From the sequence record MG852086.2: a stretch of 42,031 nucleotides of DNA; one strand, given 5' to 3'. The notes below the pieces were generated by a model. It worked only from the letters and a program-made list of their open reading frames with translations. It was not told the DNA's origin and did no database searches. Source of the DNA: Escherichia phage vB_EcoS-Ro145clw. Each line of letters begins with the position of its first letter. The stretch's first letter is position 1. A program made the translations under genes and the position numbers. Positions 1,349 through 42,031 of this stretch are shown in pieces.

Positions 1349-1365
1349 GGTTAAGATATAATCGG

Positions 1366-1391
1366 GAGGGACTTCGGTCCCTCTTTTCATT
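1366..1391 (+). terminator. intrinsic terminator after capsid gene
   Basis: Stem GAGGGAC / GTCCCTC with TTCG tetraloop followed by TTTTCATTT. Confidence 0.6.
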
Positions 1392-8384: not shown

Positions 8385-8414
8385 TTTAAACCCCTTCATT
8401 GTTGGTGTAAGTGA

Positions 8415-8551: not shown

Positions 8552-8971
8552 ATGAAACTTTCTGATTTTTATTTCGAAGAGAAAGCACTGGTAGGCAAGA
8601 AAATGCCGATTCTGCTGCCGAATGGCGAAGACTCCGGCGAGTGGCTTAATGTTGTAAGCCCTGATGCGGATGCCGCCGTTAAAGCGGGGCGTGCTTTCAT
8701 TATCGCGTACCGTCGCGGACTGGCGCGTTTTGAAGAACTGGAAAAAACCGCTAAAGCCTCCGGCGACTATACAGAATATAACCTGGCGATTAATGAACTG
8801 GCGGAAGACCTCAACCGGCAACTCGCGGCTGAAGTCGTAAACGGCTGGAGCTTCGACGACGAGCCTTTCTCTAAGGAAGCGTTTAACAAATTGCTCGACC
8901 AGTTCAAAGGGCTTGGAACCCAGGTAGCCGCGTTCCATAACGCTGAGCGCAAAGCATTACAGGAAAAGTAG
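8552..8971 (+). CDS. tail assembly chaperone (gpG-like, putative)
   Basis: 139 aa acidic ORF with SD AAGGA immediately upstream of the tape-measure gene; followed by a -1 frame overlapping ORF. Confidence 0.5.
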   Translation: MKLSDFYFEEKALVGKKMPILLPNGEDSGEWLNVVSPDADAAVKAGRAFIIAYRRGLARFEELEKTAKASGDYTEYNLAINELAEDLNRQLAAEVVNGWSFDDEPFSKEAFNKLLDQFKGLGTQVAAFHNAERKALQEK

Positions 8972-9336
8972 ACGCGCTGTACAGGTTCGCCACCTACGAG
9001 TTTGTGGATAAGCATAAAATCAGAGAGTTTGATTCTATAGCTGACGGACATGAACAGGCGCTTATCGCGATGGGTGTAATCGATAAGAAAAAACGTGCAG
9101 CGCGACGGGGTGGGCCAGAATGTCCGCCCCTTTTCATATCCACCTTTGAGACGTATTGCGACATTAAGTTTACGCGACACGTGCGCGAGGACGCTGTAGT
9201 ATTGTTTGCAAGAGAATCCGTTACGTGGCAAGACCTGAAAGCCTATCTCGACGTTACACAAAAACAGCTTAGCCTGTTCGAGATAGACATTATCATGGGC
9301 TTAGAAGCAATCTTTGAAGGTAGAAACCATGGCTGA
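8947..9336 (+). CDS. -1 frame extension ORF (gpT-like; candidate G-T frameshift product)
   Basis: Frame -1 relative to 8552..8971 is open from 8947 to TGA at 9334..9336; overlaps the last 8 codons of the chaperone gene; candidate slip region AGGAAAAG at 8961..8968; independent GTG at 9004 also possible. Confidence 0.4.
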   Translation, partial: AQSITGKVDALYRFATYEFVDKHKIREFDSIADGHEQALIAMGVIDKKKRAARRGGPECPPLFISTFETYCDIKFTRHVREDAVVLFARESVTWQDLKAYLDVTQKQLSLFEIDIIMGLEAIFEGRNHG

Positions 9337-26020: not shown

Positions 26021-26236
26021 ATGCAACCATCTGAACTAGGCATCCGTGTAGAACAGCGCCGTAAAGAACTCGGCATCTCCCAGCGCCGTCTGGCTGTCCT
26101 GACGGGAGTTTCTCAGGGCGCAATTAATCAGCTTGCACTCGGAGTAACTCAGGACGTCCGCCCGGCAACGCTGTTTAAACTGGCGGAAGTGCTGGAAGTA
26201 GACGCCAAGTGGCTGGCGTTAGGTGAAGGGGCTTAA
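26021..26236 (+). CDS. XRE-family (Cro/CI-type) HTH transcriptional regulator
   Basis: 71 aa from ATG 26021 with SD AAGGAG; ELGISQRRLAVLTGVSQGAINQLALG is a textbook HTH_XRE motif. Confidence 0.75.
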   Translation: MQPSELGIRVEQRRKELGISQRRLAVLTGVSQGAINQLALGVTQDVRPATLFKLAEVLEVDAKWLALGEGA

Positions 26237-28552: not shown

Positions 28553-28786
28553 TTATTCCAGGTCTTCTAAAGTAGCGGTCATTCCGCGAACTTCTGCAAC
28601 AGCGCTATATTTCCCGCCAACGTTTTTTACGACACCGGATTTAACCAGCACGCGTAACGACGCTTCAATAATGGCGGAACTATAGTACTTAAAATAACTG
28701 CGGCGCAAGTCAAGAACACTACACGACCCTTTTTTACGTGTAAGCGAAACTACCGCCGTAAATACTCGTGACTGGAACTCTGTCAT
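28553..28786 (-). CDS. hypothetical protein (77 aa) ending in LEDLE
   Basis: ORF coupled to upstream AlpA-like gene; shares the C-terminal DLE tail with primase and exonuclease. Confidence 0.4.
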   Translation of the reverse strand: MTEFQSRVFTAVVSLTRKKGSCSVLDLRRSYFKYYSSAIIEASLRVLVKSGVVKNVGGKYSAVAEVRGMTATLEDLE

Positions 28787-28953
28787 TTCACATTCTCCTT
28801 AATCCACGCTTCCACTTTATCCGGGTCAAACGTACCTGGCTGACGGCGGCCCATAATGCGGATACAGCAATCAGGGAACTTCCCACTCTTTAACCAGTTA
28901 TTCAGCGTTCGACGAGTAACCCCGATACGCTCGGCTACCTCATTCTGCGTCAT
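28783..28953 (-). CDS. AlpA/Xis-like HTH DNA-binding protein
   Basis: 56 aa from ATG 28953 (SD GAGGG); MTQNEVAERIGVTRRTLNNWLKSGKFP...VEAWI fits the AlpA-type HTH pattern. Confidence 0.55.
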   Translation of the reverse strand: MTQNEVAERIGVTRRTLNNWLKSGKFPDCCIRIMGRRQPGTFDPDKVEAWIKENVK

Positions 28954-29014: not shown

Positions 29015-29293
29015 ACATAATCTCACCTATTGACATTACGGAAATCTTCGTTTAAGGTGCTTCTATATCTTAGTTACTTTGATTCCTGTTCACCTTGTAA
29101 AACCCGCCGAAAACGAGCGCACAACGCGAAGTGTTAGGCGGCAGTTTACTGAACATTCGAATTATCGTAACTTCCCTTCCTTAGTATCTCAGTTGCCCTG
29201 GGCAAGCTCTATTCTCATCGGCAGCATATCTCTTAAGTAACTGATTTTTTTAATGTGCTGTAGATTCGCAACCGTAAAAATGTAACGATTATT

Positions 29294-29317
29294 GGGCAGG
29301 CTTAAGGCCTGCCCTTT
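29294..29317 (+). other. GC hairpin GGGCAGGC TTAAG GCCTGCCC followed by TTT inside long intergenic region
   Basis: Perfect 8 bp stem; no gene upstream on the plus strand. Confidence 0.35.
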
Positions 29318-29384
29318 AGTTACCAAGTAATAAGAATAAAGGCACATCCCTACCTGAAGAATCACAACGGCAACGAATCTTTGC

Positions 29385-30337: not shown

Positions 30338-30375
30338 TACGCTGCTACACAGCAGCGTATCATTTTTCTCATTTT
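30338..30375 (+). terminator. intrinsic terminator
   Basis: ACGCTGCT ACAC AGCAGCGT followed by ATCATTTTTCTCATTTTT. Confidence 0.55.
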
Positions 30376-35626: not shown

Positions 35627-36172
35627 ATGAAGCTGAAACTCAAGCAGCCATCGCCAGAGGTGGTGCAAGCTGCGCATGAAGAAGCTGTTAGCGCGAACCG
35701 TCGCCGTAAACGGCCGCGCGGTAAACAGAGCCTTTATCAATCGTCCCGTAATTCCGCTGCGTTGTGGGACCCGGACTATTGTGACGAATTGATTCGTTTC
35801 TTCGACCGCACGTCATGGGAACTTGTGCCTACGTCCAAAGGTGACGAACGCCCGCTGATTCAGGATAAGCCACCGTCACTGGCCCGCTTTGCCTTACACA
35901 TCGGCGTCACTATCCCGATTATTAAGCTGTGGCTGCGTGAGATTCCCGCATTTGCAGAAGCCTATGAAACTGCACAGGCGCTGGAAGAGGCGTACTTCAC
36001 TGAGACAGGCGCGGCGGGCATCTCCGCTACGTTTGCCGCTGCGAAGCTGGGCCTTAGCAAAGAGAAACCGGTTGAATCCACCGAAAAAACGGCGCCGACT
36101 GAGATTATTTTCAGTGTTGCAGAGCCTGTAGGTAAAATCGTAACAACGAATATGGGCGAGGTAGAGGAATGA
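35627..36172 (+). CDS. terminase small subunit (putative)
   Basis: 181 aa from ATG 35627 with SD AAGGGG; basic N-terminus; immediately upstream of and overlapping TerL start. Confidence 0.55.
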   Translation: MKLKLKQPSPEVVQAAHEEAVSANRRRKRPRGKQSLYQSSRNSAALWDPDYCDELIRFFDRTSWELVPTSKGDERPLIQDKPPSLARFALHIGVTIPIIKLWLREIPAFAEAYETAQALEEAYFTETGAAGISATFAAAKLGLSKEKPVESTEKTAPTEIIFSVAEPVGKIVTTNMGEVEE

Positions 36173-40423: not shown

Positions 40424-40450
40424 AAGGCCCCATTATGGGGCCTTAGTTTT
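40424..40450. terminator. bidirectional terminator between convergent genes
   Basis: AAGGCCCC ATTAT GGGGCCTT with T-run on the plus side and A-rich on the other; variant of the recurring hairpin. Confidence 0.55.
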
Positions 40451-40673
40451 AAACTTCCACGTCTATCACCAAATCATCAGGCATGGTTATGACTATTTTA
40501 TCGTTTTCATAGAACGGGCTAAGAGGCTCATTTTCAGGCTGCAAACGTAAAGTTAGCTTTTTATCACCAAAATAATCTATGTAACGAACCCAGTACCACT
40601 CGTCGAATACCTGTACCTTTTCTCCGGGGCGTACATCTCTAGCCTTCTTTTGATTCGTAAATCTAATCGGCAT
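40449..40673 (-). CDS. hypothetical protein (74 aa), minus-strand single-gene island
   Basis: SD AGGAGG upstream; own promoter (site B) and terminator. Confidence 0.45.
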   Translation of the reverse strand: MPIRFTNQKKARDVRPGEKVQVFDEWYWVRYIDYFGDKKLTLRLQPENEPLSPFYENDKIVITMPDDLVIDVEV

Positions 40674-40698
40674 AAATACCTCCTGTTTAAGTTAACTG

Positions 40699-40727
40699 AA
40701 TAGTACCCTACTATATTGGGGTGTGCA
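40699..40727 (-). promoter_or_regulatory. sigma70-like promoter TTGCAC-N17-TACTAT with AGTAG-GGTA-CTATT (site B)
   Basis: Minus strand reads TTGCACACCCCAATATAGTAGGGTACTATTCAG; near-identical to site A. Confidence 0.5.
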
Positions 40728-40794
40728 AACTATTTGTTTATGTATTCCAGTTATTCCGCTCAATTGTAAATGTTGGAATAAACTATTCGAATAG

Positions 40795-40823
40795 TTGACT
40801 TTTCACTGAAAATGTGCTAAGCT
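40795..40823 (+). promoter_or_regulatory. sigma70-like promoter TTGACT-N17-TAAGCT with TG extended -10, preceded by palindrome CTATTCGAATAG
   Basis: TTGACTTTTCACTGAAAATGTGCTAAGCT; perfect 12 bp palindrome at 40783..40794. Confidence 0.45.
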
Positions 40824-40829
40824 CCACCT

Positions 40830-41026
40830 GAGCTTGTGAAGTATGAACAAGCGACCGCGGCGCGGGCAGGTAACGGAGCGGGACGTAAGTCCTGAGTGTA
40901 GTTACGCTGACGCGTTCGGAAGGGCCATACTCTATTGCTTGTGTAAAAAGTAACGGGTTTACTGAGATTACGCCGTTTCTATGTTTAAATGATAAGGCCT
41001 AGCGCCCCGCTTTATGGCGGGGCTTT
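40830..41026 (+). ncRNA. candidate small non-coding transcript (about 200 nt) between promoter and terminator
   Basis: No ORF with SD longer than about 36 codons; bounded by promoter 40795..40823 and hairpin GCCCCGC TTTATG GCGGGGC TTT at 41004..41026. Confidence 0.3.
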
Positions 41027-41047
41027 ACTTATCGAGAAAGGGGAAAC

Positions 41048-41434
41048 ATGAATCTTAAAGCAACTGTCATGGCAGGAGCATGTTTCATCATCCTGGTTTA
41101 CGCACACGGCATCTACCAGTATCGCAGCGGCTGGAACGAGGGCCGGGCGAATCTCATTTCGCAGCAACAGCAGAAAGCACAAGCTGAGTTAGCGAAGAAA
41201 ACACAACGGCAGCAGCAGGATGAATCAAAGGCCGCGGCCGCTGACAACGAAGGCAAGACGAAATCAGAGGTGATTACCCGTGAAGTCGTTAAGTACATTA
41301 AAACGCCTGGTCGCAGCGTGTGCACTTTCGACCCTGAGCGCGTGCAGCTCAAGTCCCGCGCCGTCGCAAACGCCAATTCCATCCCCGGATACGACGATGA
41401 TGCAGCCGCCGTGCAAACTGGCACCGCCAAGTAG
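41048..41434 (+). CDS. i-spanin (Rz-like, putative)
   Basis: 128 aa; SD AAAGGGGA; N-terminal transmembrane segment then Gln/Lys-rich coiled-coil-like region; contains overlapping lipoprotein ORF. Confidence 0.5.
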   Translation: MNLKATVMAGACFIILVYAHGIYQYRSGWNEGRANLISQQQQKAQAELAKKTQRQQQDESKAAAADNEGKTKSEVITREVVKYIKTPGRSVCTFDPERVQLKSRAVANANSIPGYDDDAAAVQTGTAK

Positions 41435-41543
41435 CGACGCTGACGAGGATTTGGCTGTCGACGTTCAGAACGCCGAATGCGCACGGCAATTGCGCCTGAA
41501 AGTGTTCATGTTGCAGGATTACGTGAGGAATATTCTGGAATAG
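41280..41543 (+). CDS. o-spanin (Rz1-like lipoprotein, putative), overlapping Rz in the +1 frame
   Basis: GTG start with SD GAGGTG; signal peptide ending in lipobox LSAC; Pro-rich mature region; extends past the Rz stop. Confidence 0.45.
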   Translation: MKSLSTLKRLVAACALSTLSACSSSPAPSQTPIPSPDTTMMQPPCKLAPPSSDADEDLAVDVQNAECARQLRLKVFMLQDYVRNILE

Positions 41544-41625
41544 TTGCCTTGCATGTTGGAATAATTTATTCTTGACATGTAAATCCGGGTGGCCCGGGTT
41601 CCAACGTCCAGGGGACATACTGACT

Positions 41626-42031
41626 ATGAATCGTTTTTTACGTTATCCGTTCCAGGAAGAAGCTGGGGCAGAAGATAAATCCGCCGGCGGTGACGCGCCG
41701 AAAATGTTCACCGCTGAAGAAGTTCAGGCGCTGATTGAGAAAGAAGTTGCCGGGCTTAAGGCCAATCAGGAAGCATTGCTGGCGGAGAAGAAAGAAGCTG
41801 CCCGTAAAGCAAGAGAGGCTGAAGAAGAACGGCAGCGCGCACACCAGGAGGCATTAAAAGCCGCCGGTAAGATGGACGAGTTCGAAAAGACGATTCGTAG
41901 CCAGTATGACCCGGTGTTAGCAGAGAAAGATGGTCGCATCACCAAAATGGCTGAGCGCATCCTCGGCAGCGAACGTAAAGCGGTGTTAGGCTCTTTCGCT
42001 GGTGACTTTATTACCCCGGAAGCAGTAGACA
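41626..42031 (+). CDS. scaffolding protein, N-terminal part (gene runs off the window end)
   Basis: ATG 41626 with SD GGGGA; Ala/Glu/Lys-rich helical sequence; no stop before window end; frame matches the ORF entering at 1..296. Confidence 0.5.
   Translation, partial: MNRFLRYPFQEEAGAEDKSAGGDAPKMFTAEEVQALIEKEVAGLKANQEALLAEKKEAARKAREAEEERQRAHQEALKAAGKMDEFEKTIRSQYDPVLAEKDGRITKMAERILGSERKAVLGSFAGDFITPEAVD

Follow-up and report, generated by a model that had tools for sequence, protein, structure and literature searches.

A conserved, predicted folded RNA ahead of the spanin and head genes of Kagunavirus and Jerseyvirus phages: a candidate leader with a leaky terminator

Introduction

The RNase III sites of phages T7 (the R sites) and lambda (as in the N leader) are hairpins with internal loops, and to our knowledge conserved flanking single-stranded motifs are not a feature of them. 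In the lambda pR′-tR′ region, a sigma-70 promoter is followed about 200 nt on by a terminator and then by lysis-type and head genes; a -10-like hexamer stands at the transcript start, and the short terminated 6S RNA is a by-product whose sequence has, as far as we know, no structural role. The put RNAs of phage HK022 (putL and putR) let polymerase pass terminators in cis with no dedicated protein, in dependence on the beta′ zinc-binding domain. They are promoter-proximal antiterminators of about 70 nt, each with two bulged stem-loops and with terminators downstream; they occur as two paralogous copies at the heads of two operons, and their arrangement and a -10-like element in an early transcribed region have been described (PMC9378689).

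The locus analysed here lies in a 42,031-nt sequence from Escherichia phage vB_EcoS-Ro145clw (record MG852086.2; this whole stretch is called the window), a Kagunavirus of the Guernseyvirinae. Its layout is like that of pR′-tR′, with a sigma-70 promoter, a terminator-like hairpin about 200 nt on, Rz/Rz1-like spanin genes followed by head genes, a -10-like hexamer at the transcript start and a short terminated RNA as the expected by-product. Unlike pR′-tR′, it comes with no Q-like protein among those scanned: a PHROGs scan of 30 small early and middle proteins, a subset of the genes, found neither a Q-like nor an N-like antiterminator, and only two small helix-turn-helix proteins, whose genes lie at 26021-26236 on the plus strand and at 28783-28953 on the minus strand. 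The locus also differs from lambda 6S in that the fold of its RNA is under selection and its U-run is much weaker. Like putL and putR, it has a promoter-proximal RNA with two bulged stem-loops, terminators downstream and no dedicated protein in evidence, and many relatives hold two paralogous copies at the heads of two operons, the window itself holding one. Unlike put, its leader domain is about 95 nt long and has no detectable sequence or structure homology to it, and the carrier is a virulent siphovirus rather than a lambdoid phage, in which put-like activity is putative. Finally, its long irregular hairpin, with about two helical turns and internal loops in an mRNA leader, resembles the phage RNase III hairpins, with the differences that conserved single-stranded motifs flank it and that its cleavage is putative.

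Results

Genome context of the promoter-leader-hairpin unit

The leader interval of the window is 100% identical to that of Escherichia phage vB_EcoS-Ro145c2YLVW (MH051334). The window is rotated relative to that record and 114 nt shorter; the coordinate offset shifts somewhere between about 20.9 and 29.7 kb of the record, in the tail-gene region, and the initial 30 nt past the rotation point have no exact match.

Upstream of the leader, the genes run in the order terminase, portal, head-morphogenesis protein and Hoc-like decoration protein, and are followed by a bidirectional terminator at 40424-40444. Downstream, a rightward operon begins with the spanin genes and continues with the scaffold, major capsid, connector and major tail genes. 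An earlier sequence-only reading of this DNA had placed the unit just upstream of the spanin and late head genes, which agrees with the i-spanin gene starting at 41048 and the scaffold and capsid genes coming next. The unit lies in a 374-nt intergenic region, and its features, together with the genes that follow, are:

40743-40794, no strand assigned: GGAATA/TATTCC half-site array, including GAATA-N3-TATTC at 40776-40788 and a palindrome at 40783-40794 (from motif conservation)
40795-40823, plus strand: sigma-70 promoter with extended -10, consisting of TTGACT (40795-40800), a 17-nt spacer ending in TGC, and TAAGCT (40818-40823) (from the sequence)
40830-40831, plus strand: predicted transcription start, 7-8 nt past the -10 (from the spacing, and from the covariance-model match, which begins at 40830)
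40832-40852, plus strand: hairpin P1, GCUUGU/ACAAGC with a 9-nt loop, pairing 40832-37 with 40847-52 (from covariation)
40843-40953, plus strand: 36-codon open reading frame, rejected as a gene (from its conservation pattern)
40855-40919, plus strand: long irregular hairpin P2a-P2b-P3-P4 (from covariation)
40920-40937, plus strand: conserved unpaired stretch AAGGGCCAUACUCUAUUG, with the motifs CGGAAGGGCC and CUAUUG (from the alignment)
40938-41003, plus strand: variable 3′ part of the RNA, with a conserved AGAUUaCGCCGU inside (from the alignment)
41004-41032, plus strand: G+C-rich hairpin (41004-41023), then an interrupted U-run UUUACUUAU (from a terminator scan and covariation)
41027-41036, plus strand: candidate closing-helix partner of 40833-40842 (from RNAalifold)
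41048-41543, plus strand: overlapping i-spanin (41048-41434) and o-spanin (41397-41543) genes, the first genes 3′ of the leader

Between the decoration-gene terminator and the leader lies a leftward gene (40449-40673, minus strand) for a 74-aa protein with no assigned function (phrog_8705). Across relatives, this slot is a hot spot for leftward inserted genes, including a 67-aa protein in Bas70, a sliding-clamp-like gene in Schulenburg, a methyltransferase in S103 and a large 'transcriptional regulator' in VSiA; the equivalent slot is empty in S55 and Jersey. The 74-aa gene adjoining the leader unit is driven by one copy of the motif CCCCAATATAATAGGCTACTATTCA, which has 10 matches in the window against 1.3 expected (at 8414, 20083, 23659, 25929, 25974, 29398 and 30627 on the plus strand and at 40699-40739 on the minus strand). 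This motif reads as an ordinary sigma-70 promoter, TTGCAC-17-TACTAT, and corresponds to the PHIRE 'phage promoter' consensus reported for fBC-Eco01 (PMC9825357).

A conserved promoter and an upstream half-site array

The sequence-only reading had described a promoter, TTGACT-N17-TAAGCT with a TG extension, preceded by a perfect palindrome; both are present, the promoter at 40795-40823 and the palindrome, CTATTCGAATAG, at 40783-40794. A consensus scanner makes no call for the promoter, only 8 of the 12 hexamer positions matching, and the pattern TTGAC-N18-TAAGNT has 3 matches in this genome against 2.4 expected from shuffled sequence, which is chance level. Among 67 distinct copies, the promoter elements are nevertheless conserved: TG at -15/-14 and the TAnnCT of the -10 never vary (67/67), the -35 is TTGACT, TAGACT or TAGATT, and the spacer sequences differ. 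Related types carry the promoter TGGACT-17-TGaTAACCT. The weakness of the -35 in several types suggests activator dependence. Transcription would start at about 40830.

Perfect 12-nt palindromes are at chance level in the genome (9 against 10.2 expected), and the one at 40783-40794 belongs to the Kagunavirus-type allele only, the wider conservation being that of the GGAATA/TATTCC half-site array upstream of the -35. Three GGAATA hexamers fall within 38 bp there, and the whole window holds 28 against 18 expected. The array is kept in the Kagunavirus, Jersey and phiEap-2/SP-031 types and is absent from paralogues of the unit at an early locus (described below). Judged by this conservation, it is probably the binding region of a transcription regulator, of phage or host.

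Further, the -10 hexamer is repeated at the transcript start (40818-40834), as TAAGCT and then TGAGCT, with an exact repeat in the Jersey type (TACGCT...TACGCT); the second copy is also the 5′ strand of P1. By analogy, the repeat could be a sigma-dependent pause element.

A second GGAATA cluster of three hexamers lies at 41527-41600 (plus strand), between the o-spanin and scaffold genes, and within it the 19 nt of 40770-40788 recur at 41553-41571. The cluster also contains a candidate promoter, TTGCCT-17-TATTCT (41544-41572), which is conserved in S55 and is followed by a hairpin at about 41581-41597 (arms ATCCGGG and CCCGGGT) with a compensatory change in S55. It may give the scaffold and capsid genes a promoter of their own, or may instead serve as a repressor site.

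The 5′ domain of the RNA

The initial 95 nt or so of the RNA are predicted to fold into the small hairpin P1, which begins 2 nt from the predicted transcription start, and the long irregular hairpin P2-P4. P1 has changes on both sides in 4 of its 6 pairs, with 98.3% of alignment cells pairing. The long hairpin consists of P2a (40855-57/40917-19), P2b (40859-64/40911-16), P3 (40867-74/40901-09) and P4 (40879-84/40889-94); a GUAA loop caps P4, and the internal loop of P2-P4 sets GGAG opposite AGUGUA. Compensatory changes are found in 12 of the 23 pairs from P2a to P4, and 90-97% of cells pair. For the whole 5′ domain, in an alignment that was fitted to the covariance model and so somewhat favours the structure, 95.5% of cells pair and 16 of 29 pairs have changed on both sides, as against 29-40% of cells pairing when the partners are slid by 1-3 columns. 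Moreover, MAFFT/RNAalifold, run independently on closer sequences, gives the same helices, and the covariance model (R1), built from Kagunavirus-type and paralogue sequences, recovers the divergent J-type copies of Jerseyvirus phages at E ~1e-8.

Two of the pairs are G·U in 28 of 30 sequences, where the opposite strand would have A·C mismatches, and the predicted folding energy is -71.2 kcal/mol for the plus strand and -52.7 kcal/mol for the minus strand. These conserved G·U pairs and the difference between the strands argue that the constraint acts on the plus-strand RNA. The unpaired AAGGGCCAUACUCUAUUG stretch that follows P2-P4 is nearly invariant among the Kagunavirus, Jersey and paralogue types, and its CGGAAGGGCC motif is also found in phiEap-2/pink.

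The 3′ hairpin and a candidate closing helix

No consensus structure was found in the variable part at 40938-41003. The hairpin beyond it has 8 pairs, 7 of them G-C, a 4-nt loop and a stem energy of -16.8 kcal/mol, and is followed by TTTACTTATC; 99.7% of cells pair, with compensatory changes at two positions. Where the sequence-only reading had seen a hairpin plus T-run (41004-41026), the hairpin stands and covaries, and the T-run turns out to be short and interrupted. In particular, U fills 5 of the first 8 bases past the hairpin here; in the Jersey, phiEap-2 and VSiA/Cornellvirus types it fills 3 of the 8. Terminator-like sites in the genome number 4 against 4.7 expected, which is chance level. 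In every allele type, the hairpin stands about 21 nt before the spanin ribosome-binding site. We read 41004-41032, from its predicted stem and tail, as a leaky intrinsic terminator or attenuator, at which read-through would be expected because the U-run is weak.

RNAalifold also pairs 40833-40842 with 41027-41036. Pairing in this helix reaches 99.1% of cells. Its compatible changes, 2 double and 3 single, all trace to one Kagunavirus-versus-Jersey split; the pattern hints that the 5′ end and the segment after the hairpin may form a closing helix adjacent to the ribosome-binding site. Such a helix would be possible only in read-through RNA, since 41027-41036 lies beyond the likely termination point. 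The Cornellvirus-type leaders, for their part, have a predicted pairing with the ribosome-binding region.

Distribution, alleles and exchange between genera

The leader interval is found in about 180 phage records at 92-100% identity and in 48 IMG/VR contigs. A pattern scan of metagenomes gave 14 true loci among the 80 matches listed, all on phage-sized contigs, and a pattern scan of a genome collection gave none among the 80 matches listed, these being chance matches in high-G+C bacteria. The J-type allele occurs, for example, in S55 and Jersey. Salmonella phage S103, which has a Jerseyvirus backbone, is 96-100% identical to the window over 40774-41074 and 60-85% identical in the flanks; S55 shows 50-60% identity in the leader unit, as against 80-88% in the flanking genes. 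These identity profiles indicate that promoter, RNA and hairpin have been exchanged between genera as one module with discrete alleles. By the covariation above, the predicted fold of the leader is kept while its sequence drifts.

At greater distance, the Cornellvirus C1-type leaders (VSiA, SE1, AH01) give no match to the covariance model, and the phiEap-2/pink type matches at E 0.3 only, at the syntenic place; the putative homology of these leaders rests on synteny and shared motifs. Overall, comparison across these genomes indicates that the unit is a conserved, folded non-coding RNA of about 200 nt, on the plus strand, in Kagunavirus and Jerseyvirus phages. The case for function is comparative, since the promoter pattern, the terminator-like hairpin and the palindrome do not exceed chance within this genome.

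A covariance-model search against Rfam, which the sequence-only reading had proposed as a check, places the leader unit in no described family: Rfam 15 at gathering thresholds gives no matches in the whole window, and at E<=10 over 40600-41700 it gives three chance-level hits, none covering the unit. ARAGORN finds no tRNA or tmRNA genes. With the covariance model, the HK022 pR′ leader matches at E 0.15, over P1 only, which is chance level, and model R2, run with filters off, gives no meaningful match to the 25-30 kb region of HK022 (PL/PR), the best one (E 4.9) being on the wrong strand. By these comparisons of sequence and predicted structure, the leader is a member of neither the put nor the lambdoid Q family. 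Likenesses to boxA, the ops element, ARG boxes and 4.5S RNA were judged by eye and rejected on mismatches or spacing.

A second copy at the early operon

About 50 of the 180 related phages carry a second copy with the same promoter and 5′ domain (234 places). Its place is a divergent intergenic region, flanked on one side by a leftward helix-turn-helix gene and on the other by the early rightward operon, which comprises small genes, holin, endolysin and terminase. Upstream of this paralogue there is no GGAATA array; downstream come first a terminator-like hairpin and next a second promoter, which is of the common phage type (TTGCAC-17-TACTAT), so that read-through is not strictly needed at the early locus. 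In the window, model R2 with filters off finds no second copy, the early locus being occupied by a unit to which the model gives no match; only the relatives, therefore, speak for two copies.

That unit, at 29030-29320 (plus strand), runs from a promoter (TTGACA-17-TAAGGT) to a terminator in the early divergent intergenic region, has no open reading frame, and ends in the hairpin GGGCAGGCttaaGGCCTGCCC-TTTAGTT at 29294-29314; its folding z-score is -3.3. Phage Jersey keeps this unit too, at 8861-9140 of its own sequence, and about 30% of relatives carry the leader paralogue at that locus instead. A resemblance to the leader seen by eye had made it a candidate divergent copy; model R2 is silent on it, and it is kept as a positional analogue only.

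A leader that may control read-through

From the arrangement and conservation of these elements, we tentatively favour a reading in which the unit acts in cis, as a leader that controls read-through into the late operon by way of a leaky terminator. Host sigma-70 polymerase would start at about 40830 from the extended -10 promoter with its variable -35, subject to a regulator at the upstream GGAATA/TATTCC sites. The initial 95 nt or so of the RNA would fold into P1 and P2-P4, followed by the conserved single-stranded stretch. About 175 nt on, the polymerase would meet the strong hairpin and its short, interrupted U-run, which would work as a leaky terminator 21 nt short of the ribosome-binding site of the spanin genes; polymerases that stop would release an RNA of about 195 nt, and those that read through would make the late mRNA. 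How often polymerases read on past this hairpin, and past later terminators such as the one that follows the capsid gene, would be set by the folded leader or by a factor that it recruits. We infer this mechanism, which may be like that of the HK022 put RNAs, and with it the point where transcription starts, how efficiently it terminates and any influence on elongation.

Several observations count in its favour. There is no room for a promoter between the hairpin and the spanin start codon, which lies only 24 nt past the hairpin, and the operon upstream is closed by the terminator at 40424-40444. Terminator-like sites occur inside both rightward operons (1364-1385 and 30338-30359), and in the relatives that carry it, the second copy of the unit stands at the head of the early operon, as in the putL/putR arrangement. 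The covariation of the plus-strand fold, the promoter elements kept amid drifting spacers, the -10 repeat at the transcript start, the exchange of the unit as one module and the finding of no antiterminator among the 30 proteins scanned count for it too. Counted against it are the candidate promoter at 41544-41572, which may serve the scaffold and capsid genes independently, the lack of homology to put, the single copy in the window and the second promoter that follows the early-locus paralogue. The sequence-only reading had named three options, a regulatory RNA, a leader with attenuator, and a packaging-initiation region; the second is favoured among them by the fixed spacing of about 21 nt, the weak U-run and the helix that only read-through RNA could form. 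The site at 1364-1385 (plus strand) is a strong, terminator-like hairpin, GGGAGGGACttcgGTCCCTCTT-TTCATTT, directly 3′ of the major capsid gene within the late operon. The literature holds nothing that we could find on transcripts from the leader interval; RNA-seq of a relative reports gene-level classes (PMC12645636).

Discussion

A cis-acting leader could also work after transcription. The 5′ hairpin or the closing helix might protect the mRNA from RNase E, the long hairpin might be an RNase III site, or the leader might tune spanin translation. We consider this possible and rather unlikely. P1 lies where such protection would need it, 2 nt from the predicted start; P2-P4, with about 23 bp and internal loops, resembles phage RNase III sites; and both the candidate helix 40833-40842/41027-41036, which adjoins the ribosome-binding site, and the predicted pairing of the Cornellvirus-type leaders point the same way. 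However, the closing helix derives from a single evolutionary split, the conserved single-stranded motifs are unneeded for simple stabilisation, and the reading leaves unexplained why the same promoter and 5′ domain stand upstream of a second promoter at the early locus.

It is unlikely that the unit is instead a stand-alone small RNA of about 195 nt, ending at the hairpin and acting in trans on host or phage RNAs or proteins. A promoter-to-hairpin unit with no open reading frame is what this reading predicts, the Kagunavirus-type hairpin is strong (U in 5 of 8 positions), the conserved unpaired motifs could be seed or binding sites, and the early-locus paralogue, with its own terminator-like hairpin and a separate promoter after it, looks like an independent gene. 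Yet the U-tail is short, with interruptions, and little of it is left in the Jersey and Cornellvirus types; the position relative to the spanin ribosome-binding site is fixed in all types; and the unit diverges faster (50-60% identity) than its flanks (80-88%), which is unusual for a seed-based small RNA. Thus, of the candidate small RNA in the sequence-only reading, the plus-strand non-coding unit holds, and a free trans-acting RNA, while possible, is not the best fit.

We regard it as very improbable that the element acts only as DNA and makes no functional RNA, whether its role were in packaging, as an origin of replication or just in binding a protein: the repeated GGAATA sites and palindromes are DNA signals, but the array lies upstream of the transcribed part and not within it, and the conserved G·U pairs (A·C mismatches on the opposite strand) and the very different folding of the two strands speak for an RNA. 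In particular, the packaging-initiation region that the sequence-only reading had offered is not borne out, the small terminase gene lying at 35627-36172, 4.6 kb from the unit, and the G·U pairs indicating a constraint on the plus-strand RNA.

That the 36-codon frame at 40843-40953 encodes a small protein, as annotated ('hypothetical protein') in the GenBank records of Bas70, Schulenburg, fBC-Eco01 and others, is hardly credible, since its ATG, which falls within the P1 loop, is missing in 14 of 48 distinct copies, 5 further copies are frameshifted to 9-17 residues, its variable sites spread over the codon positions without bias (11:12:10), and it has no Shine-Dalgarno sequence. It is indeed the longest frame between promoter and hairpin, and the sequence-only statement that none there is convincing holds good. 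A conserved mini-ORF, with a Shine-Dalgarno-like GGAAGGG and a UUG start, was also considered and rejected: its frames range from 1 to 10 codons, and it is kept only in the Kagunavirus, Jersey and paralogue types and missing from the other types.

Returning to the leader with read-through control, a more specific form of this reading makes the two-hairpin 5′ domain an RNA antiterminator that needs no protein and that does the work of HK022 put, to which it would be unrelated in sequence and fold. We think this unlikely and put it forward only as a conjecture. The wider proposal is likewise doubtful: the Guernseyvirinae as a subfamily would use such an antiterminator to lead the late operon and, in many of these phages, the early one too, and would exchange it between genera as a cassette of promoter, RNA and terminator.

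Phages of the genera Kagunavirus and Jerseyvirus are widely isolated and have uses in phage therapy and food safety; what is known of their transcription programme comes from predicted promoters and terminators only. The leader offers a concrete handle on late-gene control, in the form of a conserved RNA, backed by covariation, where the main structural operon is entered. Further, a spurious 'hypothetical protein', the 36-codon frame, can be removed from many genome records. Should the leader prove to be an RNA antiterminator, put would no longer be the only phage system of this kind, and virulent phages would have their first.
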